Assembly: GCF_030144855.1 (NCBI RefSeq)
Contig: NC_082709.1
Location: forward strand, 111,786,001 to 111,850,000
DNA length: 64,000 bases
DNA from: Hypanus sabinus
Lineage: Eukaryota
Direction: 5' to 3'
The position numbers and the translations under genes were made by a program. This document shows, in pieces, positions 27,770 to 57,356 of this stretch. The notes below the pieces were generated by a model. It had not been told where the DNA came from and did no database searches. It saw only the letters and a program-made list of their open reading frames with translations. Positions within the stretch are counted from its first letter, which is position 1. Each line of letters begins with the position of its first letter.

Positions 27770-28135
27770 ATCAAAATATACTTTATTCACAAAATTATTT
27801 ACAATAAACTGTTTAATAACTAAATTATTTACAGACATTACTATTACCTTCTATACATTTAAAAAAAACTTCATCCACTCTCGTGACACTCTGCTGGTTC
27901 ATATTGTACAATACAACCATAGTTGAGGGGTATACTCCCTGCCACCCAATCCATCCCACTCCTGCAGGAGAAGAAACCTAAACTGTGGTCCTTCTGCACC
28001 GGGCCCTTGTACCAAGTTCCAATGCATCCCTTACTTAGCATGTACTCCTGCAGCCGAGAATGTGCCAGTCGGTAGCATTCCCCCATTGACATTTGATGAG
28101 CTGGTAGTACTATTTTGCAGATAAACTTAACTTCT
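27770..28135 (-). mobile_element. Tx1-like LINE 3' end
   Basis: ECYRLAHSRLQEYML C-terminal motif followed by AATAAA and an A-rich tail on the minus strand. Confidence 0.55.
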
Positions 28136-30847: not shown

Positions 30848-31141
30848 TACAGCTGGAGACAAAGAAACATCTGTTAGTTACTGCATTATATACTCTAATC
30901 AAGGCTTCTCCACCTTGGGTTGCGCAAGGTAGTGCAGTTGGTTTGGTACTTTACAAGGCCAGTGATTTCTGTTGCGGTCTGTGAATTCTTGAAGCATGGC
31001 AACATTTGCAGGCTGCCTCCAGCACATCCTCAAGCTGTGTTGGTTATTGACACAAGCAACACATGTCATTGTATGTGTTGATGTACATGTGACAAATAAA
31101 ACTTTCTTATCACAAACGTGAGAAAATCTGGAAATGCTGGA

Positions 31142-31857
31142 TGTCTAGGTCGGTCTGATGGGGTTCAACCAAATAGGAAAGTTGGGATGTGCCAGTGAAT
31201 GGAACCTCGATTTGAGAGAATGTTGTGTAAATACAGCCCATAAACAATTATTAGTTGGCAAGAAATAGCACCGCATGAAATTATAAAGGAAGTATATTTG
31301 TCAATTTCAGCTTACAGTTAATAGGGAAAAGAAAAGGACTGTTAACAGTTAAACCAGTCCAATGTGCACATAAGTGTTGGTGCTTATACTAGAATAAGCG
31401 GGGTGTATCCCTTACTCACATGCTGGGCCCACAGTCTGAGTGAAAGCACCCACTACATTCCAAACTTCCCTCGGAGTCCATCTCGATCTAACTGACTCTC
31501 TCTCAGGAGTATTGGCCCTTCCTCCTTGGAGCCATTCATCTGCAAAAAACACTTCTTGCAACAGGGACTCCTTCCAGTGGCATTCTGTGGAATCTGCCCT
31601 TCTGTTCTGCTCCGCAACTCCCACCAAAAGACCCCAAACTAAACAACTGTCCTTCAGAGAACCCTTCCCCACAGCTCTCTAGACTTCTTTCCCATCCCAC
31701 GATCCTGATTGGCTGACACACATTCCTAAATTGGACAACATGTCTCCTTAGCTGAAGTCAAAGCCTACTTCCCAGCATGGCATACTGCCTTCACAGAAAA
31801 CTACTGATATAAACCATCTCACAGCTTAGCAGTGGAAATCTTAACCAGGGCATTACA
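31142..31857 (-). mobile_element. Probable LTR (solo, or the 3' LTR of the older ERV)
   Basis: Begins TGTAATG on the minus strand and has a candidate CA end; abuts the truncated env of the older ERV. No TSD or partner LTR found; left boundary uncertain (31142 or 31226). Confidence 0.45.
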
Positions 31858-31899
31858 CAGTAAATTTTGTTAAAGCCTATCAGGACAAATATTATGACT

Positions 31900-34800
31900 C
31901 GTAATGTTGAGTAATCCCAGTTTCCTAGACTTAATTGAATCTAGTCAAAGAAATCCCATCCATCGGATTGACCTATTTTACCTACTGCTTGATAAATGTG
32001 ATCAGCCAAATCAGTTACTTTTAATCTGTCTGTATATTCCGTGCAACATCATAAAATGGGAATTAAATCAATGCAAAATGAGCTACTTTTCAAATTTCTC
32101 GTTTAGTTTCAGACTCGGGAAGTAAAGTCTGTGTGGAAGAGAGGTGTATGCCTCATTTTCACACGTAAAGTACATATTGTTCCATGAATTTAGACCACTT
32201 CTTAATACTTAACAGGAACCTTGTTGAACTGCAATATTTTTCTTCTGTATATTGTCAACAAAAATTTCAGTCATTATCCCCTTTAGTTAAAATATAAAGT
32301 GTAACTGCATGAGCTATGCCCAACCGTAACTCAAACAAAAGGTAGTTTTTATAGTGAACACATGAAAAGATCCAATAACTTTATCATGAACCTTAGATGT
32401 AGTATAGAGATATCCTAGGAAAAACATGAGTAGGGTCAGATATGATGTGATTCCTTATATCATGCTGATTATATTTACATAAATGATCTAGTTCAAGATG
32501 ACAATGCGGGGGCCATGATCATTGCATATTTATGTCTCCCTTGAGAATAATGAATTATAGGCATAATGGATTGTGATAATGAATTTCGCTTACAGAAGTT
32601 CATTCTGTATCTGCAGGAATGTCTAGCATTGAACATTTTAGAGTGTATATGAAATGTTCAAAGCCTCTGTTAGTCTCGATAGACCATGGATTTGCACCTT
32701 GAAAAGTTTCCAGGGCACTAGCCTGGGCAAGGTTTTTTTTAATGGAAGGCCGGCAGTTTCCCAAGCTGCAAATCTCCCCTCTCCACGCCACCAATGTTGT
32801 CCAAGGGAAGGACATTAGAGAGTATATATTGACATACCCAATTACTAGAGGCATTAATGGCATCAGTAAATTCATGTGATACTCACAACTATGTATTACA
32901 AATCATCTCAATTGGCACATTGTGAGTAGGAAAAATTGGCAAAAATATAACAGTAGCAAATAATAGAATAAACTTCATAATTTCCAGTAACTGTCGACTG
33001 TAGTCTTCTGGCTGATTAGTGATTTGCTCACTGAAGCCCAGTAGCATAGAGCTTACTAGCACATTAACCATGGCACTTCTTGTCCTCGTCAAATTCCACT
33101 TTAGCTCACTTCCAGTGACTGGCATGTATCCATTTATTTTACCTTCTAATTGAGCTTCTAGTGGCTGGTTATGAGATTTTTAATCAGGAATCACTCACCA
33201 GAAATCAAGATGTGTCCACCTTCTGTTGGATCACCCCAAGTCACAGAAGCCTATTGAGAAGCAGACTGGACAGCTTGGGTTAATTTGGGTTGATGCGTAT
33301 ATCAGCCTCTCTGAGATTGAGGGCTCCCAGCAGTAACATATTTCCCTGTTACTATCCTGAATGGCCAGTTTAATTTTCTTGTTTGGGGTTGCTCTGAAAC
33401 AACTTAAGAACCATAGGAAGAGCTGTAGGCCATGGTGCCTTCTTCATGATACTTAGTTGTTGTTTTATGATTTCATTCATTCGACCTGTTCTAATGATTG
33501 GGAGTTGTGGACAATGAAAAGACCATTCAATTTTCAGCAGGCAGCATAATTCCTGACAAACACTCCCAGTGAAAATTGTTCTTTGGTCAGAGTCAGTGTG
33601 ATACGGCAATCCCTGTCTTGGAATGTAGTCAATGATCAGACTTTTTGCTGTAAGTGTGACGGTAGTATTCCTTGCTGGAATAGCTACCACCTGTCTTGAA
33701 AACTTGTCCACTATCATCAGTACATCCACGTATCCTTGACATTTGGCAAAGTAAAAGTAAAAATGGATCAGATGGGACATGAGCACTTAATTGTGGTAGC
33801 TTTTCTGTTGCTCCAGGATTTGTTTTCAGGCATGTCATGCATCCTTCAAAAGTTTGTCAAGCTTGTACCTTGAACTTTGGATTCCATCATCATTATTTCC
33901 ACTCTAGTGTGTCCTAGGGAGTGCCAGGTAAGAGAGCAATATAGTTAGAGCTACTAGTCTATGACTAGTGCCATATCTCCATGCTCCATCATTGTTTAAT
34001 TTCCCACCATTCTCCATACAGAACAACTTTTCCCAGTTAGAACAATGAGCTTGCAACTCTTGAGCATCTTGTCCAGCTTCATTTCCATAATTTCAGTTAT
34101 TGCATTCACTGTCCTCTGTACTTACATTAATTCTTTGACTTTTTAAAAAACTTTTATTTCCTTCACTTTTTTCTGTTCTGCTCTGTTTACATGTTCATCC
34201 GTGAATACATTTCCACAGCTTTCTGTTGTATCATTTTGGAGCAGCTTTTACATTTTAATAAAACAACTTCAAATGGCAATTGTATGGCATCCATTAGTTC
34301 TTGCACCAGTTGACAATTCTTGTTTGGAGTTTATATAGCTGTGAGAAAACCTCCTTGTCTCCAAAGTTTCCAAAATAATGAACTACTCCAAAAGCATCTC
34401 GAGAATCAGTGTAGCTGATCTTCCTTCTGCCACCTTAAAGGCTTCAATTAGAGCTTTCATTCTGCCTGTTGTGTAGAGGTATCAGGAGCCATTTTTCCTG
34501 ATGCCAGCACTTCTGTGTTGGAAAGAACAGTCCATCCAGCCATTCGGATTCTTCCCTCAATTGTTGAGGAGTCATCAGTGTACAGAAGCAGATCTTTGAC
34601 AGGATAATAACTCTGGACACCACGGTAGCACAGCAGTCAGCGTGATGCTATAACATTTCAGGGCATTGGCATGTAGAGTTCAATTTCAATGTCATCTGTA
34701 GGAAGCTTGTGCGTCCTCCCCGTGGAATGTACAGGTTTTGCCCGGGTGCTCCAGATTCCTCCCACAGTCCAAAGATGTACCAAGTAGATTGATTGGTCAC

Positions 34801-37800
34801 TGTAAATTGTTGCATGGTTCGACTGGCATTAAATCAGGGTGGGGGGTGCAGCTCAAAGGACCAGAGAGTTAATTCCATGCTATGTTGCTAGCTAAATAAA
34901 TAAATAACCAACTTGACGCTGTCAGTCACACACACAAAAGAAAATCTGCAGATGCTGGAAATCCAGAGCAACACACACAATGCTGGAGTAACTCAGCAGG
35001 CCAGGCAGCATCTATGGAAAAAAACTAAACAGTTGTTGTTTCAGGACGAGACCCTTCATCAGGGAAAGGAGGCAGACTAAGGAGGATGTGATAATGGAGG
35101 AATCAGTACAAAGTGCACGTGTTAGTTGACACCAGGAGAGGGGGAGGGATTAAGTAAAGAGCTAGGAAGTTGATTGGTAAAAGAGATAAATGGCTGGAGA
35201 AGGGGGAATCTGATAGGAGCTGACAGAAGACTATGGAAGAAAGGGAAGGGGGAGGAGCACCAAAGGGAGGTAATAACAGCTGAGGAGAGAAGGTGAGAGA
35301 GTGAAATGGGATTGGAGAATGGTGGGGTGGGGGGAGCAATTACCAGAAGTTTGAGAAATCAGTGCTCATGCCATCGGGTTGTAGGCTACCCAGACAGTAT
35401 ACAAGGTATTGCTCCTTCTTACTGAGTGTGGCTCATCATGGCAGTAGAGGAGACCAAGGACTGACATGTTGGAATAGGAATGGGAAGTAGAATTGTAGGA
35501 TGGCCACCAGGAAATCCTGCTTTTTGTGGCGGATGGAGCTAAAGGTGCTTGACAAGTGGTCTCGTGATTTACATTGGGTCTCACTGATTTACAGGTGTAT
35601 ATCCTGTATTGGATACAGTAGATCAGTGGTCCCCAACAGACTTGCAGGTGAAGTGTAGCTTCACCTGCAAGAACTGTTTGGGGCCTAAATCATAGTGAGG
35701 AAGGTGATGTAGGGGCAGGTGTGGCACTTGTTCTGCTTGCAAGGATAGGAGATCAGTGGGTGGGACGAGTGGGCAAGAGAATTGTGTTATGAGTGATCCT
35801 TATGGAAAGTGTGGGGATTGGGTGACAATGTGCTTGGTGATGGCTTCCCATTGGAGGTGGCAGAGGTTATGGAGAATTATGTGCTGGGTGTGAAGGCTTA
35901 TGGGTTTCGTAGGTTGTCGGTCTCCATGTTCTTGAGTTAAGAATGCCATCATGTTATTTGATGTTGACATATAGGGTAAATGTATCAGGGATTCCTAATG
36001 CAGGTGCAGAACACAATATCACCTTTAAGGTTTGTAAAGCTTTCAGTTTTTCATTAGGAATCATAGGGTCGTTTAGGCGCTTACTCAGTGTGTATTGTTG
36101 AGTAGTTGGACAATTTCAGCATATGAATTGATCCATGCTCTGTTGTAGTTATGCAAACCCAGAAATGATCAGAGTTGCTGGACTGTTGTAGGTGGCTTTG
36201 CCGATTTAATGGCTTTTGTACGATCCTCAGTGGTTTCCTCATTACCTTGAGAAATTTTCTGTCTCAAGTCAATTACTTGTTGCAATTGTGCCTTGTCTAG
36301 ATTTGCTTGGAGGATTGATAATTGAGCAAATAAAGCACATCATGTTCATGCTGGTTGTGCAGCATTGGATGAAATCAGGACATCATCCACTACATATTGT
36401 ATAATAGTCAAATTAATGGCTAGCAAGTCCCTGAGGTGTTGCCACAAGATCATGTGATGGACAGTGGGACTATTGTGGAGCCTCGTCCACTGGTATTGGT
36501 GACCATCATCTTGAAAGCCAATCAGTTGGCATTCAGATGCCAGTGGCACAGAGCAGGATCCATTGGCCATATCAATAAATGTAAACCAATTGTGTGATGG
36601 TTTCAGATCACTGAAAATAGTTGATGAATCAGCCACTAGAGAGGTTAGTTTGTCCACACATTGTCTATCAACCTGGTGATCCACGGCAGTCTCCTTTCAT
36701 AGGTTCCATCTTCAGTCCTGTGTGCGTTCACTCCCTTCTCTATTGGAGTCAGCCTTGCATGACTGCCAACCTATTGTTTCATCACTGTCATCCTCTCCTG
36801 AGTTCACCAGAGAACGCTGTAAAGTCCATGTTCTATCCATCCTGTACTTCCTCGGAGTGACGCTGTCTCAGAGGACTGACCAGCAAAGGGGGTGTTTCCC
36901 AAGAAGTGTCAATGGCAGGACTAGAGGTCCTTGCTGTGCTTTCTCATACTGTTTCAGTTTGCTTCTTCACTCTGTTCAATGACCTTCAATTCAATTTCAC
37001 TTGTTTTCCTCTTGTTCATTATGCAGCTGGCATTTAGGGCAGTAAGGAAGGTCCTCCATCTCTTTCCCCGTCATGTCAGCAGCCTCCTCTTGATTTTCAC
37101 CACTGGCAGTCTTGCAAGTTCCGAGTGGAGAGCCAGGAACAGCGTTGCACCCGGATGTAGTAAGAGTTTTGTTTGACTAGTCAGGGTTGTTGGTGCTGAA
37201 CTGAACCACTGAATCTGGAGGACCAGTGGACCACTCTTTTGTCTGGCCTCTACGCTTTGACCTGTTTGGCAAAGGTGACTCTAGCAGGAGCCAAAGCTCA
37301 TTCACACATTCGACCAAGTTGTCCACGTGCTTGTATCTTTAACTCACACCTTCCAGTCTGTTCCTATATCCCTCAGGCATTCTCTGGATCTTATCACATG
37401 CCTTTTTAATAAATTTAATGTTGGTTGTATTTTTCTGGATTTTTTTCATTAATCTTATCAAACTGAGGTTTTATTCAGGTAAGCACTCAAACCCTCAGTC
37501 AACATGTAACTGTAGATTCTGTAATAGGTTTCACCACTTAAGCCAATGTCTTAATTCAATCTCATGTAACATTTAATTTGTATATACTTTGTATCACTAG
37601 TACTGTGATCTGAAGTATTATTGGCTTGAAATATTGCAACTAAAGTTTTGTAGGATTGCTTCAAAATCTTTATAGGACTGCAGTCTAAATCTTATTAGGT
37701 TGCAACCAAAATTTTAGTTTTGCAGTTAATATTTTAGAAATAAAAGCAAAATGAAATTTTGTAGACTTACAATAGATATTTTATATTTGAGCACAATATT

Positions 37801-38155
37801 AATCTTAATGCTTTTTTGTTAACAGATCTATATTTTTCCCAGAAGAGCATAGTAGTTTCCGCACTCTTAAACCTCTACTAGATGGCATATTAAGGAAAAC
37901 TAAGCAGTTTTCTCAGACAAATTGGAATTTATGGAGGAAGCTCTTGCCCCCTTTTAAGTTTACTTTGGGATTCTTTGAGTCCTAAGATCTTTGCAACCAT
38001 CCTTGCTGACTATGCCAAATTGTTGGATTCTACAAGTTTTTGATCTGAAATTCTTCTGGAAGTCAAGAATGAGACATAAAACTGGTTGCTTCAAGAGAGT
38101 CGCGACAAGAGGTGATGATGAGGAAGGAGAACATAGAGAAGAAAAAAAAGATGAC
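31900..38155 (-). mobile_element. Old, heavily decayed endogenous retrovirus (ERV-B): pol (RT, RNase H, IN) and gamma-type env remnants, interrupted by SINE, Penelope and RTE insertions
   Basis: RT: FIDMANG...HNSPT...IIQYV-DDVLI (36346-36684). RNase H: LYTD and YTDS-like motifs (~34300-34600). IN: CLKTNPG, IVDKFSR, DSDQ, WSFHCP (33370-33838). env: signal peptide MKFILLFATVIF (ATG 32978), WVC, TVGHSSC, YFTCENEAYTSLP. The upstream (gag-side) boundary is uncertain. Confidence 0.75.
34925..35905 (-). mobile_element. Penelope-like element inserted in ERV-B pol
   Basis: Collinear with the other GIY-YIG copies; splits the RT-tether region from RNase H. Confidence 0.75.
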
Positions 38156-38160
38156 TCCTA

Positions 38161-38640
38161 TGTTGTGATGGAAAATAACTGGTTCTTTGAGTCTCAACAG
38201 TAGAGGTCTGGACACACACAGTTTTAATAATAAGGAATTTATTTACAAGGGGAAGTCGGCTCAACACAAGCAACTACAATACACAGAAAGCGGTGTGGGG
38301 ACAGGGTACGGTTACACAAACAAAGAACAAGGGAAAAGCACTACGACAGCTATCCCCCTTGACCTTGGATAGCTGCGGCTCCCTTAACAGGACAAACGAT
38401 AGACCTTCCCAAGCATAAATCAATGCACTTACCTCCAATGTGATGGTCTGTAAGAGAGGGCTAGCCAAGGGCAAGTCTCAACTTTTAAAGCATGGGGCTG
38501 GGCGAGTTAATCCAATTAGGGTGACCAATAATTTAGGTGTGCATTGATTGGTTGGGAGGGACCAAATGTTGATTGGCATGTGGTGTGTCCTCCGACCAAC
38601 CAGCAGTGCATCTGTCACATGGCCGGTATCCCTGGATACA
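38161..38640 (-). repeat. ERV-A 3' LTR
   Basis: About 93-94% identical to 44741-45223 by manual count (~30 substitutions and one indel); preceded on the minus strand by the PPT AGGGGTGGAG (38650-38641). Confidence 0.95.
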
Positions 38641-38752
38641 CTCCACCCCTCGGAAGACGCACCACGTAGCCAACACACATAAGATGGTGGAACAAAATCA
38701 CATATACCAGAAATAACCAATTTTGAGCAGCTAAGTAAATGCAGAGACACAC

Positions 38753-39856
38753 TTAAATCAGCTGGCATGCGCAACATAGTATAGAAGTGGCTATGAGTGC
38801 GATGGACCAGTGAATGACAGTTGCCCACCACCCCCCTAGGGACCCAGAAGGCCACCTTTTTTTTTGGAGCTGGTCCCTTGATTTTTGAATTTTAGCCACC
38901 GAGTCCCGAATGTGAGCGGCCAAGTGAGTGATGTTGCTGGACTCATCAGGGATAAAGGTACAGCATTCCTTACTGCACACGTTCCACCATCAGCAGCGAG
39001 TAGGTAGTCCAGTGCCATTCGCTTCTGCAGGGCGACCATCCTGACAGCTGTCAGTTCTGCCGCCGTTCGGGTGAGGGCATCTTCCGTGTGTTGCAGTGCC
39101 ACTGCCGTCTCGTTGGCCAGAGTCTCGAGCACACTGGTCATCTGGATCACCTCCCGGGACAGGCTATCATCCAGAACCTCTGCCTCTGTAATGGCCCTCT
39201 TGTCCCGGTGGCTGCTGTACGATGCTCCCCAAGGTCGTTCAGGGGGTGGATGAAGGGCACCACATATGCTGGAAAGCAGCAGCCGTACCAGCTCATGGGG
39301 AGCCACGGGTAGGCGCGGTGGCCGCAGATCCAGTGGGTCCTGTTTAGAGTCCAGGGAGCTCCCAGCTTAGCGGCATCGTCGGCAGTTGTCACTGGGGCAT
39401 CTGGGTACCAGTTTCGCTGACAGTTGCTGTGACCAACGGAAAAGTTAGAAGTGTGCGCATTGCGGAGTCTGCACCAGCATTCGTTGGGTATACTCAGTGG
39501 CTGTGGAATAACTCTGAGGGTGGGGACTCGGGTGGAGGTCAAATTGTAGGGAGGGAAATACCAGTTCCTGAAGCACCCACCCCATCGGGGGGTCAAGGGA
39601 CGAGATGTTGTGTAGTGGGAGGCGAGTTGTGGGGGACTGCCAGCAGGGCCCCCCAAACAGATATACCAAAACCAGCAGGGGCAAACAGTCTGTGTAAACT
39701 GTTCATCTCATTGTCATCCAGCGGGGTCGGCGTGTGCTGGGGCCCACAAGCAGATGTGTTGCTGGCAAACTTGTAAGCAATCCCAAGGAAGGTGTTGGCA
39801 GCTGTCACGGAGCCGAACATCGCAGTGACCAGGAGGGATGACTGGAGTCGCACCAT
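38753..39856 (-). pseudogene. env: ERV-A env, gamma-type (frameshifts and small deletions)
   Basis: Signal peptide MVRLQSSLLVTAMFGSVTA; WICGHRAYPWLP; furin site RDKR; ISD LQKRMALDYLLAADGGTC; broken CX6CC (CAV..KECC); hydrophobic TM. Splice acceptor CTCTACAG lies 4 nt upstream of the ATG. Confidence 0.88.
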
Positions 39857-39896
39857 TGTCCTGTAGAGGGGGGCGGGGGTAGGTGTAGGAGGATAC

Positions 39897-42800
39897 TCAT
39901 TCCCGTCTGGTTAAATGCCAGGTATGTCTACAGGACAAATCAGATTTGCCCAGAATGGCAACCCAGTGGGTGTCCCCTGGACTACGCACGACAATTTCTC
40001 CCTTTCTGGGGAGGCTCTGCAGCTGTCGGATCCATACTCTGCCCGAGTCCTCGGCCTCGGGGGGTTCGGTGGATTTCCAGTCGGGAGATGGGGACTGTGC
40101 CGGGTGGCGGGTCAGTGGGGATCCCCCCTTGGCAAGTGGGCCGTGTGCTTAACTGGTCGACGGCCTGCTGAAGGACACTTAGCCACCCCTGCAGCATGCG
40201 AGAGGGTGTCAGAGTGCGGATTTTGTCCTTGAGCAGGCCGTTCATTCTTTCAATTAAGCCCGATGCCTGGGGGTGGTGGGGTATATGGAACTGCCACGAG
40301 ATCCCCGCCTCAGCCGCCCAGGTCTGGGCTTTGGTCCCAGCAAAGTGTGAGCCCTGATTGGATTGTACCTCCTATGGGACCCCATAGAGAGAGGAGAGGT
40401 GCTGTAATCCTCTAATGGTGCCGTTCTGGTCGGCCCTCTCACAGGGCACTGCCACCAGGACACCCGAGTATGTGTCCACCTTTGTGAGGACATACTGCTG
40501 CTTATTCTGTCGCGGGAGCGGTCCAATATAGTCCATTTGCCATACCTGACCCGCTCCCGTGCCGCGATGAATGTGGCTCGGTGGCCCTATCGGCCAGTCC
40601 CGTGGCTTGACTTGCTGGCAGATGGGGCAGTTAGCTACAGATGTTTTACATTGATCGAGTGTCAAGGCGACACTGAATTGTTCAGCCCAGCACCGCGTGC
40701 CATCAGCCCCTAAGTGACCACCTTTGCGGTGTGCCCACGCAGCTAGTGCACTGGGGTCTGTGTCGGGTGGAAGTGGTGGCAGATGATATTTGGGCAGCCT
40801 GGTCCACAGCAGTGTTAAACGTTGCCTCTTCATTATCTTTCCGGGTATGGGCATCCATATGGTGGACAGAAATTTTTCTGTGGGTAGCGTGGTCCCAAAT
40901 GAAACGCTAGTGGTGCTGTCCCCAGAGGGGGCGTCCGTGTATTTCCCACCCCATGTCTTGCCACTGGGTCATCCACACCGCAATGCCGTTAGCTACTGCC
41001 CAGGAGTCAGTATAGATGTGGACTGGTCCAGTAGTGTTTTGGAGGGTGAGGGCTACTGCTGCCAGCTCGGCAAGTTGACTGGAACCCCCCTCCCCCTCGG
41101 TGGTTAAAATTCTACCCGTGGTAGGATGAAGTGCTGCCGCTTTCCAAAATTGTTTACCCCCTTTCCAGCAGCTGGAGCCGTCTGTGAACCGGGCGCGCAG
41201 TTTGCTGCTGGGGTCGAGGGAATCGAAGGGTTGACCCCAACATGCTGGGGAAGGTTGTCCCTCAGGGATATCCGGGGCGGGGTCCTGGGACTGGGGGAAA
41301 GCCATGACTTGTTCATGGAGGCGGCTGACCCCTTCAGGACTGGGCTCAGCCCGGTCCACAATGTACCACTTCCACTTGACAATGGAGGACCTCTGGGCAC
41401 GGCCCTCCTTGTAGGTAGAATCGGGGGACTTGACCCATCGCATTATGGGGAGATGGGGGCGAAGGACGACAGGGTCGGTGCCTGTTTGGTGTTCTGTGGC
41501 GAGGAGCGCCAGGTAGCAGGCTAGCAGCTGGCCCTCGCAGGGGCTGTAGCGCACTGCTGCTTCAGGTAAGGACTTAGTCCAGAAATCGAGGGGGACTCTA
41601 CTCCCTGGGGTCTTCTGCTAGAGGCTCCACTCAGCGACCGTCTCGCTCGCTGAGACCTGTAACTCAAAAGGCAGACCCGCCTGGTGGGAAGAAAGTGGCA
41701 TGGCTTGTTCCACCGCTAGTTTCGCCGTATCAAAGGCAGCTTGTTCCGCTGGCTCCCAGAGAAATGTGGATTTTTTCCTGGAGATCCTATAGAGCGGCCG
41801 GAGAAGCATGGTCAAGTGGGGTATATGCTGCCGCCAATAGCCCAGGAGCCCCATGAATCTCTGTGTGTCAGTTTTATTTGAGGGGACAGCAAAATTTAAA
41901 ATTTTATTTTTGGCGGCATCGGGCATACTTCTGTGCCCGGAGTTCCATTGTACTCCAAGGAAAATGACACCCTGGCTGGGGCCCTGTATTTTTTCCATAT
42001 TAATGGCCCAGCCCTGTCCCCTGAGGGATTCGATTAGCATGTGAAGGGCCTTTGACACAATGGTCTCAGAAGGGCCTTGGAGAAGGATATCGTCTATATA
42101 ATGGGCAATCGAAATGGGAATTAGACGTTGTGTAAATCGTGGGAGACAAGGCCATGGCAGATTGTGGGGCTATGAATATAGCCTTGGGGCAGCTGATTAA
42201 ATGTGTATTGTCTGCTATCCCAAGTAAAGACAAACTGGTCTTGGCTATCTGAGTGCAGGGGAATCGACAAAAATGCATTCGCTAAATTGACAACAGCGTA
42301 CCAGGGTTTATGGGTACGGCCTGTGATGTCTTCAATAAGGGTGACAATGTCAGGTACAGCGGCAGCGAGGGGTGGGGGGTGCAGCCTTGTTCAATTGCCT
42401 ATAATCAACGGTCATCTGCCAGGAGGCATTCCTCTTACGGACGGGCCAAATGGGGCTATTGAAAGGCGAAGCAGCAGTTCTAATAATTCCCTCCCGTAAC
42501 AGGGCTTGAATGGAGTCTGCGATTTCTTGGCCCCCCCCCTCCCCCCGGCACTCTGTACTGACTGTTACAGATGATCTTGGAGGGAGGGGGAATAACAATT
42601 GGCACCCACTTAGCCACCCCAATGACAGTAGTGGCTCGCGCGATGCCAAAGGTGAACTTGCCCCTGTTTGTTTTAAGTGATTGTCCCTTTAAAACATTGA
42701 TCCCGAGGATACATTCCGGGGAGGAGGCAATAAGGACTTGTACACATCTGGGGGAATGATTGCCTATGGCTAGGCGAAGTGGGACCTCCCTGACGGGTAA

Positions 42801-43072
42801 GAGGGAGCCCCTCCAATCCCTCTATCTGCATGTCCGTACCCCTCCATAAGGCAGGATTGCCTGGGATAATCGTGTGCTGGGCGCCTGTGTCGACAAGTGC
42901 CATCCACCTCTGTGTTTCCCTTTCCTCACTGTACTGTGACGGGTATATGTGGCCTCAGGTCCACCTCTGTGTTTCCCTTTCCTCACTGTACTGTGACGGG
43001 TATATGTGGCCTCAGGTCCCCCGGGCGGGAAAGGGCGAGAGAGCAAATGTGCCGGGGGTCCTGGCCTTCATC
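39897..43072 (-). pseudogene. pol: ERV-A pro-pol (frameshifted)
   Basis: Protease ALVDTGAQ. RT SPFNSPIWPV, LPQGYIHSP, HYIDDIL. RNase H FTDGS, AELAA, YTDSW. IN H-H-C-C, WQMDYIGPLP, IERMNGLLK. No dUTPase seen. Confidence 0.9.
42903..43016. repeat. Perfect 57-bp tandem duplication in the ERV-A protease N-terminus
   Basis: 42903-42959 is identical to 42960-43016. Confidence 0.95.
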
Positions 43073-44684
43073 CTATGGGGGGGGGGGGGGAAGAGGGCTG
43101 CCACGCCGTGGGTGAGGCACTTTGCTGGTGGAGGTGGGACATTTCCTGCCTGACGAGCTTCGAGGGCCTTTGAGACAGTTTCGGGCAGGGAAGGCGTGGA
43201 GGGTGGCTCGGTGTGGGTGGTCATTTTGTAAGTAGTCTTCCACCTGCAATACTCCTTCCACAGGGCATATAGGTTGGGGGTGGGGATGGCATCTATCTGG
43301 TTACGATCCACCCCTGCACGCAGCAGGTCCGTGTACAGCTGCCTGCGCATATATCTGAGAGGGATAGTGTCTAGGGCCCTTGTCTTCGTCTTGCGGACCT
43401 GCGTAGGTGCCCCCCTCTGCATATACTCTAATCCCTCCAGGAGGGTGATGGCATCCCATACGGTCCTACCACTGGCTGGTGCCATGAGGGGCAGGATTAC
43501 TGACTTCAGATCGGGGCGTGCAATAGTGACCAAGTATCCCGCGAGGGCACCGGTCACTCGTGCGTTTTCAAGGAAGTTACGGTCGCAGGCACCTTGATAG
43601 ATGCCGTTGACCAGTGCCCATTCCCTGATAACCCGGGTCCCCTCACTGACCGTACCCCATTGCGGGCACCCGTGTAGATCCCACTCCAGAAGTGTGGGAT
43701 AGCGAGCTCGTACCGCGGTCACTACCCAATCCCACAGGGTTGTGCCGTCGCGGATTTCTGCTTGTGGCACCCGCGGCACATTGTTTAATCTCTGCTGGTC
43801 AGAGAGGCTTCCCAGGGCGCTTGCCTCCTGATGGGAGAGGCTGAGGTTGGGCCCCCTTTCGTCCCACAACCAGAGCAGCCAGGCCGCGAGGTGCTCGCCT
43901 GGTCGTTGGCGGTACCGATCCGCCAACTCGGTCAGCTCCTTGGGGGAGAAGTCCCGGGTCTCCGTGGTCTCAGAGAGACTAGGGGAAGATCCGGCTGTCT
44001 CCCCCCGTTCCCTTCCTCCCTGCGGTGAACCTGGGACCGCGTGGTGACGGGTCAGGCATGTTGGAGCTCAGGTGAGAAGGGGGAAGGGTGGTTGTGGGAC
44101 CTTGGTTCCTCGGGCACCCCCTCGTCATCACTATCCAGCTGGATGTCCCCATCCCCCAGCCATGCGTCCAGCTTGTCACCACACTGGACTGAGGCTCGAA
44201 TCTTTAATGGGTCCGGCTGCCAGCCAGACCGACGGGCTGCCCTGGCCTGCTGAAGTTTTATGAGGCGACAGGCAAGTTCAGTTCCCCTAACTTCAAGGTC
44301 ATCGGCTCGGGCCTGGGCAGCCTGTGCTGCTTCCTTCAGTGTGCAACAACGCTGACTGAGATCTTCAATTTCCCTGTCCTTCTGACCACACAAGTGCTGC
44401 AGGTGATCAGTAATTCTAACCTGGCATCTCAGCAGGGACACAAACAACCAGAAGGCACCCCTTTGACTCCCCTTGGCTTTGGGGAACCCTGATTCCTTCA
44501 GGAGGGAGACCACATGATGGCCCAGCTTCTCTCCACAGGGCTCTAACTGCTCAGACCAGTCCACTGGTTTTCCGTGGTCTGCCAGCATGCTGGCCAGACT
44601 CTTGAATCCCTCCCTTTCATCAGCCCATTCGGGGATCTTATCCTGGGTGCCCGCACTGGCTTTCTTCCCCTTATTCCAGAACAT
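43073..44684 (-). pseudogene. gag: ERV-A gag (one stop and frameshifts)
   Basis: Coiled-coil region then KIRASV...WLGDGDI; ETRDFSPKELTELADRYRQRPGEHLAAWLLWLWD; LLRAGVDRNQID. All resemble ERV-L/Fv1-type Gag. No CCHC knuckle. Confidence 0.85.
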
Positions 44685-44720
44685 TATCCCCTGTGCTTGT
44701 GTCCAGCCAAAACCTATGAG

Positions 44721-44738
44721 ACCGTGCTCGCAGCGCCA
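44721..44738 (-). other. Primer-binding site, tRNA-Ser-like (TGGCGCTGCGAGCACGGT)
   Basis: Starts 2 nt after the 5' LTR; resembles the complement of recalled vertebrate tRNA-Ser 3' ends (TGGCGC[A/T]G[C/T]GAGCAGG). Confidence 0.75.
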
Positions 44739-44740
44739 AA

Positions 44741-45223
44741 TGTTGTGATGGAAAATAACTGGTTCCTTGAGTCTCAACAGTAGAGGCCTGGACACACACA
44801 GTTTTAATAACAAGGTATTTATTTAGAAGGGGAAGTCGGGTCAACGCAAGCAACTACAATACACAGGAAGCGGTGTGGGGACAGGGTACGGTTACACAAA
44901 CAAAGAACAAGGGAAAAGCACTACAACAGCTATCCCCCTTGGCCTTGGATAGCTGCGGCTCCCTTGCCAGGGCAAACAATAGACCTTCCCAAGCATAAAT
45001 TAATGCACTTACCTCCAATGTGATGGTCTGTAAGAGAGACCGAGCCAGGGACAAGTCTCACCTTTTAAAGCATGGGGCTGGGCGAGATAATCCAATTAAG
45101 GTGACCACTGATTTAGGTGTGCATTGATTAGTTGGGAGGGACCAAATGTTGATTGGCATGTGGTGTGTCCTCCGACAGCCAGGTGGCAGTGCATCTGTCA
45201 CGTGGCCGATATCTCTGGATACA
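44741..45223 (-). repeat. ERV-A 5' LTR
   Basis: Minus strand shows CCAAT boxes, TATA-like TTTAAAAG (~45062-45070), a GAG|GTAAGT donor at 45012, and AATAAA/ATTAAA. Confidence 0.95.
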
Positions 45224-45700
45224 CCCTAACACGCTCTGCTCTTCTTGTACCATAGAAAACACATTCCATTGACATTTGTAGGTAAGCATTAACCAATCAG
45301 ATAGCCCCTATTCAAATGAGATACCAAAGAAGCTTGCAAAATAAGACAAAGAACTGTCACCACTAGGAGATGCACTGAACAATTGCTGTATACATTGGTA
45401 ATTATATGAAAATACAAGCAGGATTGAAAAAGTTAAAACTACAAAGAAAGTAACAATAATGCAGTCTAATCCAACAGAGTGGATTTATGTAACAACACTC
45501 ACAGAGAAATTAAGCAACTTAAACCTTTATTGATTACAGTCACTGTTTTAACTTATGGAAACATTGCAATCTGCTTATGAGCAGTGAGGTCTTGAACAAC
45601 AATGAATAAAGAATCTGATTATCTGTTTCTGATTGAGGATAAATGTTGCCAGGTCATAGAAGTCCATCTTTTTTTTTGTCATCCAGTGCATGGACTGTAT

Positions 45701-46564
45701 TGTTACGAACCCCGTAACTGGGTCACTTACCAGCAAAGATAGAGAGGTCTGTTGAAGTCTGATGATACTATTTTTAACAGTATTTATTAGTAAAAATACA
45801 CAAAAATACTATCAATGTAAATATACAGATAATATACGTCATCAATACTAAATCTAAAAGTGTGGGTATAATACTAATCAATAAGAAATACGCTCTATTG
45901 TTGTCTAGGGGATAATGTAATGTCCGATGGAAATATAAAGTTCACTCAGTTCATGCAGGCTGCAGCCTTTGGGGACCGCTGGGTTTGCAATGGTTGGAGA
46001 GAGAGAGAGAGAGAGTTTTGGGAGAAAAACTTGCCAACTCCTTTTATGATTTCGATCTTTCGGAGTCTCGTTAGTGTGGCCGTTCACTTGTGGCCTCTTC
46101 TTTAGCTAAGCCGTTCTTCCGTGGTGAGCCCGCCAATCCCAGGCAAGAGAAGGACGCACACGAGCCCCCACCGTCTGTCGCTATTAAACGCTGTCACGGG
46201 ATTTCTAGCGTTTCTTCTGGTGCGTCTAAAGGGGTTGTTCTCCAGACCCTCTTTTATCCTTACTCACGGGGTTTCAGATGTCAATCAGGTTGGGATGATG
46301 CAATCCCTCAACCAGCCCACTCTGGTCGTCCCCTGAGGGGCTTCAATGAATAGTACAGTATTCAATACACAATTCCGTTTCCAAGAGACAATAGCCGTTA
46401 TCAATGGTTTTGTTTCGCTGAGGCCAGGACACATTCTAAACCTTGTGGATTCTCTCTCATTTCCTGGGTCCCAGACCCGAATTAATAGCAATCTTGCGAT
46501 TCTCAAAAAGGAGGGGGCGACTTTGTACCCTTCAGCCCCTCAGAGTTGCGGCACATTCGTAACA
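45701..46564. mobile_element. Solo LTR (Gypsy- or ERV-type), 864 bp
   Basis: Perfect 9-bp inverted termini TGTTACGAA...TTCGTAACA; 4-bp TSD GTAT/GTGT (1 mismatch); no internal coding sequence. Confidence 0.75.
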
Positions 46565-48189
46565 GTGTAATTTCACTTGGATATCCATGTAATAGCTAAT
46601 TCAACAGATCATAACACTTCCTTGGAAGAGTCAATGTATAAACTCCAAGTTTAACTTTTAGAGGTTAACTTTGTCTTTTGGTGTGACGTTATAGATCTTC
46701 AATCTTAAATTCTTGATTGCTTGAAAAATTAGATTCAAAGGAGCTTTTCTCAGATCATTGATGTCTGTTAATTCTTGGCAAATTTTGGATATTGTTAAGC
46801 TTTCAAAACTCATGGTAGAAATAATAAAATAATTGAAGGTTTGAAATTGTAGGTCCATCCCACCAATGTAAAGTGTTGTTGACATATTATAGGGAAGATG
46901 TATTTCTTTTGCTTAGTTTGAGAGAAGAGGGATTAACTTGAATTATAAGTTAATGCCTGAAAGGGGAGAGAGGAGGAAATTAAAGATGATTGATTTCATC
47001 CATGGTTAATAGCATTGCTCAGCTATCTGCCACCAAGAAGATCAAGGAGATCAGCCACATGAAAACTCCACCATCTGTAAGGACCCTTGAGATGCTGACT
47101 TGAATGTACTTTGAATTCTTTTCAGTGCTGTTGCACCAGCATCCTAGAACGCACTACCTGAGAGCATCGCGGAAGTGCTTTTAACATGGTGGCTCCAGTA
47201 GTTCACATCAACATCTCCTGTAGTATGGTTAGGGAAGGGCTCTTACTGGCCCTTAGTAACTTCCACACCTCAAATATGAAATAAAGAAACAATGATCTCT
47301 GAGCCCAAAGGCTTGTGATGTTTACTGGTACAAGGAAATTCCCATGTACTTTTTACAGTCCCGTTTTTCCAACACAGCTAAGAGGACATGGAAGAATCTC
47401 CCATATTTCTATCCTACAAGAATGAATGAACTGGCTTCTACAAACAGTATTTTATAATCTGTCAATTGCTTTAGAGACAATGCAGAAATTTTTTTCAAGT
47501 TATTGATACATAGGAAACTTGATTGCTAATTTTGTACTGGACATATCCCCTCAAAAAGTAGTGTGACAGTAAAATCTGGTTTTCTCTCTATGCCTTTTCT
47601 CAGCCTTCAACATCAGACTATCAAACAATAAAAAAAATCCATCAACAAGATCATTTTGGGTTTGACTTAATGTGTCATCCAAAAATTTAACAACTTTGAC
47701 AGCACACAACACTCCTTCAGTTTTGCACTTGAATGCCAATTTTTATTTTGAACTTGGGTTTCAGAAGTGGCATTTGAACTTCCAATATTTAATTCTGATC
47801 GGTGTCCTTCTGCAGAACACCAGGAAGTTACATGGCCCTGGACGCTGCTATTTAATATTCTGATCTAGGCCTTGGCTCCACTTTACTGCCTGTCATTTAT
47901 ATACTTGGATTCACAAAATAACTGTCTCAATCTTGAATTTGAATCAGTCTTTTATTGATGTAGCCACACAGCTCTGAGGTAGAGAATTGCCTCTGCGTAA
48001 AGAAATTCCTCTTTGTTGTCTCTTGCTTTAAGTGGGATCCCTTTATGCTGAAACTTTGCCTTCTTCGGGAGAGGAAATAATCCTCTTTGCATTTCCCTTT
48101 CAAGCCCCCTTAAACTTTGTGTGTTTCATGAAGATCATAGATAGTGTGTTTTAATCACATTATAAGAATGACTGGGAAATATTCTTATC

Positions 48190-49040
48190 AGGTAGTGTTG
48201 AGGAAGCAGGGAGTACTTCGACAGATTAGGAGAATGGGCAAAGGAGTGCCAGATGAAATACAGTGTAGGGAAGTGTGGGATCTTGCAATTTTTTAGAAAG
48301 AATAAAGGTGTAGATTACTTTCTAAACAGGGAAAACATTCAAAAGTCCAAGGTGCAGAGGGACTTGGGAGTCTTCATGTAGGATTCCCTAAAGGTTAACT
48401 TGCAGGTTGAGTCATTGGTAAGGAGGCAAATGCAATGTTAGCATCCATTTAAGAGAACTAGAATACAAAAGCAAGCATGTAATGTTAAGGCTTTGTGAGG
48501 CATTGGTCAATCCGCATTTGGAGTACTGTGAGCAGTTTTGGACTGCTTATCTATGAATAGATATGTTGGCATTGAAGAGAGTCCAGAGGAGGTTCACAAG
48601 AATTACCTTGGAAGTGCAAGGGTTAATGTTTGCTGGTTCTGGACCTGTACTCGCTGGAGGTTAGAAGAATGGGCAGGGGGAGATCTCTTTGCAAAGTATC
48701 GAATATTGAAAGGCCTGGATAGAGTGGATGTGGTGAGGATGTTTCCTATAGTGGGGTAGTATAGGACCAGAGGGCACAATGTCAGAATAGAGTGACGTCC
48801 CTTTGGAACAGAGATGAAGAATTTCTTTAGCCAGAAAGTGGTGAATTTGTAGGATTCATTACCACTACAGCTATGGAGGTCACATCATTGGGAATATTTG
48901 AAGTGGAGGTTGATAGGTTCTTGAATAGTAAGGATGTCAAAGATCATGGGGAGAAGGCAGGGGAATGGGGTAAAGAGGGAAAATAAGTCAACCATGGTAG
49001 AATAGCAGAACAGACTTGAAGGCCCAAATGGCTAATTCTG
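48190..49040 (+). mobile_element. CR1-like LINE 3' fragment
   Basis: Collinear with 24550-25275 and 26225-26670. Confidence 0.75.
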
Positions 49041-49174
49041 CTCCTATGTCATATGTTCTATGAATGTTGCTTTTTGATACTCAGCTTTAGCCAAGATCTG
49101 CTGTGCCTTTTCTCAGTCAATGCCAGCACTCATCACAGACTGCTGATTTGTGCAGAAATGCAAGGGTGCAAGTA

Positions 49175-50953
49175 CAGTGGATTCTGGTTAATTGGGACCA
49201 TCACATTTTGGCCCATTTAAGTGGTTGTCGCAATTAGCTGAAGTTTCATGGAAATAGTTTAAAAAGTTTTTAAGAAAGTCAAACTGAGTAACAAATTATC
49301 ATTTAAATGAAATATAGAACAAGTTAGAACATTGCCACCAATCCTACAGTACTATAAATCCCTGTCTTAGCTGCCATGCTTGACTGTAAATGAACAAAAT
49401 CAGCGTAGACACCTAGTACAGATAATGGACTGACTGCATGCAATGCTGTCAACAATTGCACCTTCCAAATCTTCATTTTCATTGAAATAATCAAAATGAT
49501 TGTTGATACCTTTAAGCTTGAATGTTTGAAATTGCAGTGAGCAAAACAGTTCTGAATTATTTTACTGCTTATTACTTGCTAACTATGGGTGACAAAAATT
49601 ACTGCTTATTGAACACAAATGCATGCAATTGATGTTACTTAAAAACTGTTTGCACTAATCAGTGTAGCATAGTGGTCGCCAACCCGTCAACTGGTCGATC
49701 TTAGAGACTTTTAAAAACATTGGTGCCTGATGTTTTTTACATACACTGTGTCATCCACCGCCAGCATTAGGTTGCAAAAAAATTGGGACAATGTTTGCGC
49801 AACACCCTTGCTTTTGGAATAATGTCTGTAAACTTCAAGTCAAATACACTTCAAGGTGGTCTTTTTCAACAAGTGTGTGAGGAAAAGTAAGATTTTGAAT
49901 GGCCACTAATGCATACAGAGGTTCAGTGGTTATCAGAAAGCAATTATCTTCATCACTTTGTTACGCTTTTGGATAACGGTCTTGATGTTGTGAAAAGAAG
50001 CGGTCTTTGATTATCCTTAACCAAGTTGCAATCAGTTATTCAAAAGCTTGCTGGTTGGAAGAATGTTAAATAGTACCTGTAAAAAATATTCACTCCCCCG
50101 GGGGCCCATTAGAGGTTTTCTTTTTTATTTGTTTTTCAGCATTGAACCATAGTGGATTTAATTTGGCTTTTTTGACACTGATCAACAGAAAAGACTCTTT
50201 TGAGTCAAAGTGAAAACAAATTTCTACAAATTAGTCTAAATTTATTACAATTATTAAACATAAAATAATTGATTGCATGATAACCGCTTTCAAGTCAGTA
50301 TTTAGTGGATGCACCTTTGGCAGCATCTTTTATCTTCATGGTGTAGCTTTTGCCAGGATACTGACTCACCAGCAGTTGGACGTCCCGGATCCAGGTGTAT
50401 TTTTACTACAACCAATTGAAACACCTTGACTGCACACAGGTGATCTCCATATGACTTCTAAAACCAGTTGGCTGCACCAGTGATGATTTGGTGTATCATA
50501 TTAAGGAAGGGGGGTTAATTCCTTTTGCAATCAATTAGTTTATGTTTTATATTTGTAATTAATTCAGCTCACTTTGTAGAGATCTGTTTTCACTTTGATA
50601 TAAGTCTTTTTCTGTTCATTTTCAAAAAAATGCCAAGTTAAATCAACTGTGATTCAATGTTGTAAAACAATAAAACATGAAAACTTCCAAGTGGGTGAAT
50701 ACTTTTTATAGGTACTGTATATACTATAAGTAAAGTATCCTATTCAGAGCTTTGAAATAGTTTTATTTTTTGCATACACCTGTAACATTTAATATGACAA
50801 TAATATTTATAACCTGTTAAAATGTGAATATTGACTGTATGTTAGAATAATCAGTACAGTTGACTATAAAGACTTTAGCAACTAACGGTGGGGGCTGCAG
50901 AGGTAAATAAAAGGCACAAGTGGGCCGTGAGCAAAATGGTTTGAGAGCCACTG
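49175..50953. mobile_element. Nested DNA transposons: Tigger-like (49175-49669), hAT remnant (49670-50953), and a Tc1 deletion derivative (~50072-50717) inside the hAT
   Basis: Tigger terminus CAGTGGATTCTGGTTAATTGG shared with 59214; hAT transposase motifs HCVIHRQH and HTEVQWLS; Tc1-type long TIRs flanked by TA. Confidence 0.65.
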
Positions 50954-52279
50954 TCATAGAGAATAGAGAATGTTAGTGACATTGAAAGGGCATATTATCT
51001 TTCTCTAATTGTTGTGATGTTGTAATATATACAAATCATGCTTGATTTCTGGAGGAAAAAAAATTACTGAAGTGCACAATCAGTTTCTATCCTAGCACGT
51101 TTAAGACAAAGTAGTAGCACCAATTTTATTAGATAATAAAATTGAGCTTATAAGCCTACAATATCTTGCCTTAAATGTGAATGTACATGTATGTAATATA
51201 TATAAATGGGGAGGTTTCTCCTATTTTTGAGTTTACAAGATTCATTACATTGAGGAAGAAAAAGTCTTTGTTTAGGTGTGCAAGCAGGGGCTGGGGAAAA
51301 GTATCTTACAGTTATTGATTATAGTCTTTGCTGTAAGAGGTATTGTTAGTTTGTTTTTTGTGGTGATAGTGGGACAGCTTTCACAGTTACTTATGGCATT
51401 GTCCATAGAACAGTACAGCTCAAGAACAGGCCTTTTAACCCACAATGTTACGCAGATCCAATTAAATTAATAATTAGATGGCCAGCTAAACTAATCCCTT
51501 CTGCATGCTCAGTGTCCATATCCCTCCACTTCCCTTACATTCATGTGCTTATACAAACGTCTCTTAAAAGTTCCTAATGTTAACACCCCAGGCACCCACT
51601 ACTCTCTGTGTATAAATAAATCTTATCTCTTACATCTCCTTTGAACTTGCCCCCTCTCTCCCTAAATTCAAGCCCTCTGATATGAGATATTTCAACCCTA
51701 GGAAAAAGTTGCTGACTTTCCATTCTATGTCTATCATTATCTTTATAAACCACTATCAGATCTCAGCTGTTCCAGAGAAAACAAACCAAGTTTGGGCTAA
51801 TCCAGGCAGCATCCTGGTAAATCTCTTCTCCCTCTCCAAAACTGGACATCCTCTCTGTAATGGGGTGAATGCAATACTCCAGGTGCACCTAACTAAAATT
51901 TTATAAAGCTGCAGCATGCTGACTTTTGAACTCCATGCCTCGACTAATAAAGGTTAAGCGTACCCTGTCTTAGCCACTCTATCAACCTGTGTAGCCACTT
52001 TCAAGGAGCTATGAACTTGACCTCAAGATCCCTCTGCTCATCAACACTGTTAAGGGTCTTGCTCTTAACAATGTACTGTCTCTTTACAATTGGCCTATCA
52101 AGGTGCAACACTTTAGCCGGTTTAAGCTCAAACTGCCACTTGCCTGCCCATATCTGCAACTGTTCTATATCTTGTGTTCTTTTCCAGTCTTCTATGCCAT
52201 CCACAACACAACCAATCATCATATCATCTGCAGACTTACTAATCTACCCACCTACTTTTTCATCCAGGTCATTTATATA

Positions 52280-53868: not shown

Positions 53869-54604
53869 TATATCATAAACAGCGGAAGTCCCAGTACAAA
53901 CCCCTGTGGAACACCATAATCTCAGACCTCCAAGTAGAATAAGTCCCTCTGTCTTCTGTAGGCAAGCCAGGTTTGAATCAAAGTGGCCAATCCACCATGG
54001 ATCCCATGCCACCAGATCTCTTCTGCTGGATGCATCCCCATGAGGGACCTTGTCAAATAATTTATTAAATCCATGTAAACAACATCCTCAGCTCTATGTT
54101 CACTAATCACTCTCATCACCGCTTCAAATAACTCAATCAAGTTAGTAATTTACGGCTTTCCCTGAACAAAGTCATGCTGGCTCTCTCTAATTAGGCCATG
54201 GTGTTCCAAATTATCATAAATCCTATTCCTAAGAATTCTCTCCAGTAACGTCCATGCCACTCACATGAGACTCACTGATCTATAGTTTTCAGAATTATTT
54301 CTGGTACACCATGGATTCCCAGAGCTTTTTTGTTGTGTTTGTTTTTCCTGGTGGACCACATGACTTTAGAATCAGGATAACTAGGATGTTATAAATTCCC
54401 ACACTCAACCTAAGAGGAATGAACTAGATAATCCAGTGAGGAGGAGACCCATTCTATTTCTGTTTTTTTTTCCCTCCTACTAAATTGGGAACATCATAGT
54501 TAGGTGGTATGTTGTGACAAAAATGGAACAATTTGATGTTGTATTGAAAGTTGGCTATTGGCAATGTGTAAAGTTCTGATGTGTAAGCACTTAAAAAGTA
54601 TTGT

Positions 54605-57207: not shown

Positions 57208-57356
57208 CATTACTAGGGCTAGCTTGATTAAAAACCATCCCAGTTCCTGCAATATATGTAGAATTCATATCAATTTTACCTCAGGGAAAATTTATATGAA
57301 TTCTACATATGATGTAGGAACTGGGAAGGTTTTTAATTGAGTTAGCCCTAATAATG
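57208..57356. repeat. 149-bp near-perfect palindrome/hairpin (MITE-like)
   Basis: Two ~74-bp arms are reverse-complementary with ~10 mismatches and almost no loop. Confidence 0.9.

Follow-up and report, generated by a model that had tools for sequence, protein, structure and literature searches.

A defective, envelope-bearing class III provirus of the ERV-L/ERV-S lineage in the genome of the ray Hypanus sabinus

The window, a stretch of 64,000 nucleotides of the Hypanus sabinus genome (contig NC_082709.1), holds a 7,063-bp provirus on the minus strand, at 38161..45223, with all of its parts present. We consider it highly probable (close to 90%) that this is a defective member of a multi-copy class III ERV-L/ERV-S family with the ERV-S plan, which likely reached the germ line of an ancestral ray through repeated infections that depended on env, all in one wave, followed by neutral decay. 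The anatomy, the family of copies, the reverse transcriptase (RT) placement, a selection signal and the antisense position in an importin-alpha intron are direct observations. A first-pass annotation had called the element structurally complete, which holds for the presence of every part but not for their condition: gag, pro-pol and env are broken by frame changes, pol contains stops and pro carries a duplication. The features are as follows.

near 20016-20084, plus strand: importin-alpha first exon (motif scan)
23362..58421, plus strand: host importin-alpha gene (KPNA3/4-type), exons 23362-23406 and 58332-58421, provirus antisense in an intron (motif scan)
38156..38160, no strand: left copy of the target-site duplication (TSD), 5 bp
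38161..38640, minus strand: 3' LTR, 480 bp, TGT...ACA ends
38641..38651, minus strand: polypurine tract (PPT)
38700..39900, minus strand: gamma-type env with SU, furin site, ISD and membrane segment (Pfam TLV_coat, E 0.0028)
39900..40758, minus strand: integrase, HHCC, WQMDY near 40542, stop near 40374
40787..42640, minus strand: RT, tether and RNase H, YIDD at 42089-42100, several frame changes, stops at ~41620 and ~40909
42640..43072, minus strand: protease, DTG near 42890, broken (Pfam RVP, E 0.0013)
42903..43016, minus strand: 57-bp unit duplicated in tandem within the N-terminal part of the protease (window copy)
43073..43075, minus strand: TAG at the gag-pro junction, putative read-through stop
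43073..44684, minus strand: ERV-L/Fv1-type gag lacking a zinc knuckle, its first ATG being at 44684 (tblastn to ray Gag)
44721..44738, minus strand: primer binding site (PBS) for tRNA-Ser(CGA/TGA), starting 2 nt past the 5' LTR
44741..45223, minus strand: 5' LTR, 483 bp, TGT start, ACA end, AATAAA at ~44818-44823
45224..45228, no strand: right copy of the TSD, 5 bp, one mismatch to the left copy (4/5)

The two LTRs of the window copy differ at 30 of 479 aligned bases (p 0.063, K2P 0.066). A 5-nt TSD was tested in ten family copies with both ends, and matched at 5/5 positions in seven and 4/5 in three; tests of 4 and 6 nt in the same ten copies gave a full match at one poly-C site only. The PBS pairs with tRNA-Ser(CGA) and tRNA-Ser(TGA) genes of the host genome at 17/18, 17/18 and 16/18 positions, in a search in which a strict tRNA pattern returned no matches and a looser one 58, only those at L054-L056 being used. 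As a further tRNA-Ser source, L053 was rejected on being typed tRNA-Arg, as was L051, where no tRNA gene was found. HERV-S is named for its Ser PBS; that of ERV-L is Leu. The LTRs, the Ser-like PBS, the PPT (exactly as given) and the 5-bp TSD reported at first pass are all confirmed. TGT...ACA ends and a 5-bp TSD are features of class III ERV-L/S elements, and the virus would have been primed by tRNA-Ser and integrated with a 5-bp stagger.

The window gag is broken by frame changes around 44060 and close to its 3' end. It matches ray proteins named 'Friend virus susceptibility protein 1-like' by NCBI (E 1e-24 to 1e-32), and a Pfam search of its pieces found no family. A CX2CX4HX4C zinc knuckle was found neither in the window element nor inside any of 21 proviruses; the motif was seen at one of the 21 loci (L050), upstream of the provirus. 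The gag-pro junction codon, for which context was found in 14 of the 21 copies, is TAG in 11, TAA in 1 and CAG in 2. The junction stop is in frame with gag in 7/12 copies and with pro in 2/4, and Gag-Pol might have been made by read-through of the TAG, the gamma/ERV-L mode, for which gag, stop and pro would share one frame. YIDD is still readable in 12 of the 21 copies, with no other YXDD in any. The integrase C-terminal domain directly adjoins the core with no dUTPase between them: only ~30 bases lie between the integrase segments flanking the expected dUTPase position, and residues 942-1082 of a dUTPase-bearing relative find no match. Pfam matches in the window element are RVP, RVT_1, RNase_H, rve, Integrase_H2C2 and TLV_coat, of which, given how short the pieces are, RNase_H alone reaches its curated cut-off. 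These results agree with the earlier description of a YIDD RT, a WQMDYIGPLP integrase, a Gag of ERV-L/Fv1 character lacking a zinc knuckle, and no dUTPase.

The window env has an RDKR furin site near 39200, an ISD at ~39000-39030 and an N-glycosylation site in heptad 1, with frame changes near 39180 and near 38975. Across 21 copies, the SU CXXC motif (CWIC) was found in 13, the furin site in 13, the ISD in 13 and the CX6CC of TM in 10; CWIC and CX6CC are unreadable in the window copy. The earlier identification of a gamma-type env with an ISD is upheld by the TLV_coat match and the family-wide motifs. The env message was probably spliced, and its product furin-cleaved, with SU and TM disulfide-linked. 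The window env was also considered as a co-opted syncytin-like gene and rejected, for this copy, on its two frame changes and lack of an open frame.

The host genome contains at least 62 internal copies, given by 62 exact matches to the PPT-LTR junction, and 356 exact LTR-end matches; reversed-pattern controls for both gave none. Solo LTRs would have arisen by LTR-LTR recombination. At least 49 pol matches of 79-100% identity were found (40 of 195 candidates scored). LTR-LTR K2P is 0.038-0.077 in 12 of 20 copies, those with two long LTRs. Every gene of the window copy is broken. The first-pass view of a moderately old insertion with ~6-7% LTR divergence is right as to the divergence, whereas the age itself is rate-dependent: with the rate that PMC4422223 assumes, K2P 0.066 corresponds to ~150 My, and with a purely illustrative 1e-9 per year to ~33 My. 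Among the papers listed in literature searches, none was seen to describe this ray ERV family.

The RT tree comprises 47 rows, 20 of 67 starting rows having been removed as redundant. P0018, P0031, L076 and L079-L083 are absent, having no RT extract; there is therefore no gypsy outgroup, and the root was placed on two delta-like rows for drawing only. The IMG/VR reference rows carry the identities that we presume for them. The family is supported at 100/100 and joins the Pol of the stingray Hemitrygon at 99/93. Together they lie inside a 98/95 clade with mouse P0006 (a cluster whose members are annotated from Mus), galliform P0029, Xenopus P0024 and lungfish P0017, and a mixture model on 29 rows recovers the same groups at 99/94 and 98/93. 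The family is thus, as first proposed, a class III ERV of the ERV-L/S clade; it groups with the mouse MuERV-L cluster, apart from class I, class II and SnRV. Pols from killifish, bichir and lungfish and many from amphibians belong to the same lineage, so the earlier statement that it is best described from amniotes understates its breadth.

The gamma-type env, the best PDB matches of RT-RNase H, which are MLV-type enzymes (E 5e-24), and the described elephant shark ERVs, which are SnRV-like or epsilon, might suggest a virus of class I (epsilon/gamma) or of snakehead type instead. However, the RT tree, examined for the epsilon/gamma grouping that the first-pass annotation had named as evidence against its own assignment, came out against class I: that placement is rejected with a delta-lnL of 449 and a p-AU of 5e-66, and class I is thereby refuted. 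The 5-bp TSD, YIDD and lack of a zinc knuckle point the same way, and a 10,688-nt contig, which we take to be SnRV, falls outside a 99/97 clade (100/99 in the mixture model) holding the ray family. Such an origin is hardly credible. A jump into rays by an ERV-L/S virus of tetrapods or bony fish is quite unlikely. In its favour, the ray clade is nested among tetrapod, lungfish and killifish rows and is not basal, retroviruses of cartilaginous fish do not take a basal position according to PMC6001957, and the best non-ray Gag match is P0207 (35%). Against this, the nearest Pol is that of the stingray (55%), all six env matches, out of 788 candidates, come from elasmobranchs (stingray, sawfish, skate, catshark and sawshark) and related Gag is found in Narcine and whale shark; any jump would be ancient, older than the ray family. 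Cross-class transmission, raised at first pass, is accordingly not indicated, and the cartilaginous-fish host then proposed fits closest Pol, Gag and env relatives from rays and other elasmobranchs.

How the copies spread can be judged from the substitutions between them. Non-CpG pN/pS is 0.53 (0.41-0.66) for RT-RNase H and 0.56 (0.40-0.79) for gag capsid. For env it is 0.61 (0.46-0.89), against 1.00 (0.77-1.31) in the LTR control, with the env interval overlapping that of the control, pairs being non-independent and the alignment filter able to lower pN. The local duplicates L039 and L042 were excluded. Purifying selection on env between copies supports spread by reinfection, and with it the earlier suggestion that the element was once infectious. 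The pol tree of 30 loci is star-like (median tip 0.025), pN/pS is not different from neutral for integrase (0.81, 0.57-1.27) or TM alone (0.81, 0.58-1.22), and local duplication accounts for some loci (L035/L039, L041/L042 and the C75 array), all of which would suit a family copied chiefly by retrotransposition within the cell or in trans, as in env-less ERV-L, with env a decaying passenger. We regard this as unlikely, given the env value with CpG columns removed, the fact that most full-length copies still carry the greater part of env, and 5-bp TSDs that are distinct between copies. The preferred reading is that the ancestral ray germ line was entered by repeated env-dependent infection, likely in a single wave, with neutral decay thereafter; the window copy would have no present protein function.

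In S2 Fig of Xu et al. 2018 (PMC6001957), the leaf list places the whale shark element Rh_ty_ERV3 next to No_fu_ERV1, HERVL, Murine_ERVL and HERVS. This element shares with the ray family a chondrichthyan host and, by eye in S2 Data, the Gag type. It is a partial consensus given in a supplement, whereas the ray family is distinct and has full LTR-to-LTR anatomy. XtERV-S of Xenopus tropicalis (Yedavalli et al. 2021, PMC8278194) likewise joins a class III gag-pol to a class I TM and has a Ser PBS, TGT/ACA ends, a 5-bp TSD, YIDD and no zinc knuckle, and its env shares CWIC, CX6CC, the ISD and the heptad glycosylation site. It differs in being intact, recent and 8.0 kb long, with 705-bp LTRs and a dUTPase-like segment after IN; the ray family is old, broken and 7.1 kb long, with 480-bp LTRs and no room for a dUTPase. 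P0024, which agrees with the Pol of XtERV-S in length and in the spacing of its motifs, lies in the sister clade to the ray family, apart from it and grouped with lungfish and galliform rows; RT sisterhood with P0024 itself was not found.

MuERV-L/ERV-L resembles the ray family in RT clade, Fv1-type Gag, YIDD and 5-bp TSD, but has a dUTPase after IN and no env (PMC8278194), neither of which holds for the ray family. ERV-S, in the discussion of the same paper, has env and lacks dUTPase, and ERV-S/HERV-S shares both with the ray family, along with the Ser PBS. The ERV-S-like plan noted at first pass is supported on these points; the link itself is suggested by structure, in an RT set without HERV-S or foamy-virus rows, and because no dUTPase domain shows in galliform P0029 either, the common plan may be an ancestral or a convergent one. 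Proudley et al. 2026 (10.64898/2026.05.06.723177) list 295 chondrichthyan syncytin-like Env candidates from 16 species; rays, skates and sharks all yield a gamma-type TM that carries the ISD and CX6CC. Their screen requires a 400-aa open frame, which the window env lacks, and there Pol was examined for catshark loci only and is epsilon, whereas here such an env is joined to an ERV-L/S pol.

The element is a well-preserved new ray family but not a new kind, because relatives are already reported from shark and frogs. The first-pass suggestion of a host-range extension fails because of Rh_ty_ERV3, the env-bearing plan of XtERV-S and the fact that most chondrichthyan ERVs belong to clade III; the known range of ERV-L/S is not widened, and there is no sign of present function. 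What is now given is the full anatomy of an ERV-L/S-clade provirus from a cartilaginous fish, with an envelope lineage of sharks and rays joined to a class III pol; this has a bearing on the timing of env and dUTPase gain or loss. A bolder and rather doubtful extension is a lineage of ERV-S type found throughout elasmobranchs, with env and without dUTPase and sister to the MuERV-L/galliform ERV-L/XtERV-S clade, which might have kept its own env and been reinfecting since before the shark-ray split; env-less, dUTPase-bearing ERV-L would be derived, and a 59-bp protease segment would be a recurrent minisatellite birthplace at unrelated loci.

At the host locus, importin alpha-3 in the PDB (E 2.4e-9) and Pfam IBB are matched by the exon at 58332, and a PDB search with just the first exon found nothing significant. 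The intron insertion may be common to several species and could then serve as a dating marker. Joints skipping ~7.2 kb in three runs, starting at 38082-38091 with sides of 21-31 letters, were rejected as empty-site alleles because the left flank is an old repeat with paralogues matching only to ~38096.

The 57/59-bp pro unit has expanded into minisatellites in several other family copies, with unit counts on which two counts disagree for L043 and L046. A single clade of multi-unit copies was rejected: six changes are needed for six rows, with no clustering, although the starred branches force only two. Minisatellites derived from transposable elements are a known phenomenon.

The element at 38161–45223 of the window is a real provirus, complete in outline and well preserved, and its coding capacity is dead.

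38161–45223, minus strand: provirus, with both LTRs, TSD, PBS and Pfam pieces
38161–38640, minus strand: LTR, starting with TGT and ending with ACA
44741–45223, minus strand: LTR, starting with TGT and ending with ACA
42903–43016, minus strand: duplicated 57-bp unit, doubled within the pro gene

Aligned over 479 bases, the two LTRs show 30 mismatches (K2P 0.066), in agreement with the 6–7% of the first-pass annotation, and are bounded by a 5-bp TSD with a single mismatch. The PBS matches tRNA-Ser(CGA) and tRNA-Ser(TGA) genes of the same genome at 17/18, 17/18 and 16/18 positions. Pfam pieces of protease, RT, RNase H, integrase and TLV_coat follow in the expected order. The description 'structurally complete' thus holds for the outline but not for the genes: frame changes occur in every one, the 57-bp duplication breaks pro as well, and pol carries additional stops (near 41620, 40909 and 40374). 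As originally claimed, dUTPase is cleanly absent from the element, and no zinc knuckle was found inside any of the 21 proviruses scanned. Among ten family copies with both ends, the 5-nt TSD test gave 5/5 matches in seven and 4/5 in three; other TSD lengths fitted at one poly-C site only. Gag-Pol could plausibly be made by read-through of the TAG at 43073–43075; across copies, this position is in frame with gag in 7 of 12 and with pro in 2 of 4.

RT sequences were placed with an X at each break in a tree of 47 rows, with neither HERV-S nor foamy rows. The family is recovered with 100/100 support and joins the Pol of the stingray Hemitrygon akajei (99/93), its best Pol relative (55% identity over 84% of the query). 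Both fall in a clade (98/95) with galliform, Xenopus, newt and lungfish rows and with P0006, a mouse cluster (members annotated from Mus) that carries dUTPase and that we take to be MuERV-L. The next clade (97/95) contains amphibian, lungfish and killifish rows. A mixture-model tree of 29 rows agrees. This placement bears out the proposed class III ERV-L/S lineage; the contrary outcome, grouping with class I, is ruled out by a topology test (p-AU 5e-66).

The family shares with ERV-S the presence of env and the absence of dUTPase, a likeness of plan, as the RT trees hold no HERV-S rows, and differs from ERV-L proper in two defining features. The plan of XtERV-S (PMC8278194) is close to that seen here, and in other frogs ERV-L-like elements are reported to carry an env of gamma or alpha type (10.1101/2024.07.05.601823). 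The suggested extension of host range does not stand, since class III ERVs are already known in cartilaginous fish: PMC11089739 reports 2,843 clade III RT loci in six such genomes, and PMC6001957 places clade Huo in every major vertebrate lineage. In the S2 Fig leaf list of the latter, which gives the order of labels rather than the topology, whale-shark and killifish ERVs directly adjoin HERVL, Murine_ERVL and HERVS; judged by eye, the Gag of the whale-shark ERV is of the same type as here. Gamma-type Envs have been surveyed across 36 chondrichthyans (10.64898/2026.05.06.723177). In the literature searched, which did not extend to Dfam or Repbase, we found no published description of this ray family.

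The env has a gamma-type feature set across copies (n = 21), and its detectable relatives, six among 788 candidates, are elasmobranch without exception. Env gene models from sawfish, skate, catshark and sawshark (P0342, P0344, P0345 and P0346; 381–421 aa) are 39–47% identical to it, and in another stingray there are gene models that match the env of the window at 63–95% and continue into the same LTR. Together with the Hemitrygon Pol, these stingray homologues point to a ray as the likely host. The family Gag matches ray proteins named Fv1-like by NCBI. A Hemitrygon gene model named zinc-binding protein A33-like (P0216) contains a Gag fragment 64–69% identical to the family; therefore, a closer relative than the protein row P0001 exists in Hemitrygon.

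A genome search with pol gave 49 matches at 79–100% identity (40 of 195 candidates scored). Exact patterns counted at least 356 LTR ends and at least 62 PPT–LTR junctions, with none for reversed-pattern controls, an excess of ends that suggests many solo LTRs. Local duplicates excepted, the 30 loci form a star-like pol tree. At each locus the longest sense stretch without a stop (236–719 codons) falls short of a whole Pol. K2P between LTRs is 0.038–0.077 in copies with two long LTRs (12 of 20 fetched). How old the 'moderately old' window insertion is varies with the rate chosen: ~150 My at the 2.2e-10 per year that PMC4422223 assumes, and ~33 My at an illustrative 1e-9. A direct shark rate of 7e-10 per generation is reported in PMC10587355. 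A segmental tandem array with this ERV lies at G000:C75:46.23–46.58 Mb, where at least ten partial proviruses, nearly identical to one another, are spaced ~22–50 kb apart. Two inverted neighbouring copies (L041 and L042, G000:C30:110.40–110.43 Mb) have 5′ flanks in common; in L042 another PBS after the 3′ LTR suggests a tandem or rearranged provirus.

The most likely origin of the family is a simple retrovirus that was infectious, used tRNA-Ser as its primer and integrated into the germ line many times in one wave. Selection on env between copies is an expected mark of reinfection. Computed without CpG-prone columns, the pN/pS of copy pairs (not independent of one another) is 0.61 (0.46–0.89) for env, 0.53 for RT-RH and 0.56 for capsid, versus 1.00 (0.77–1.31) for control LTR pseudo-codons; integrase and TM alone (both 0.81) do not differ from neutral. 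The env value lends moderate support to spread by reinfection.

Most copies have one pro-region unit. Arrays of at least 60 units of 57 and 59 bp (L037:1–3486), of 29 units (L048:6059–7772) and of roughly 13–17 units (L040 and L049) occur in other copies. On the pol tree the multi-unit copies show no clustering (six changes for six rows, of which starred branches force only two), so the unit has likely expanded repeatedly and independently after insertion.

The window provirus lies antisense within the second intron of an importin-alpha gene (KPNA3/4-type), of which the first three exons were located.

20016–20084, plus strand: exon 1
23362–23406, plus strand: exon 2, flanking the provirus
58332–58421, plus strand: exon 3, flanking the provirus (matches importin alpha-3, E 2.4e-9)

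Nine organisms each contain 23–28% of the sampled env words. In two of these, a contig spans a flank and 25 LTR letters at the insertion site, below the 31 letters of our bridging rule, which is only a hint that the insertion may be shared. The left flank (37850–38096) is an old dispersed repeat with 68–85% identity to at least 39 other places. The importin-alpha gene has a CpG island at ~19.4–20.4 kb, and a C-rich 30-bp minisatellite of ~8 copies (20594–20823) directly follows its first exon. Beyond the provirus lie a MITE-like element (50205–50598), whose inverted arms of 73 nt are 85% complementary and separated by 248 nt, and the decayed remains of a Tc1/mariner DNA transposon (52292–53854), which shows nested inverted repeats and a transposase HTH match (E 5.5e-9).
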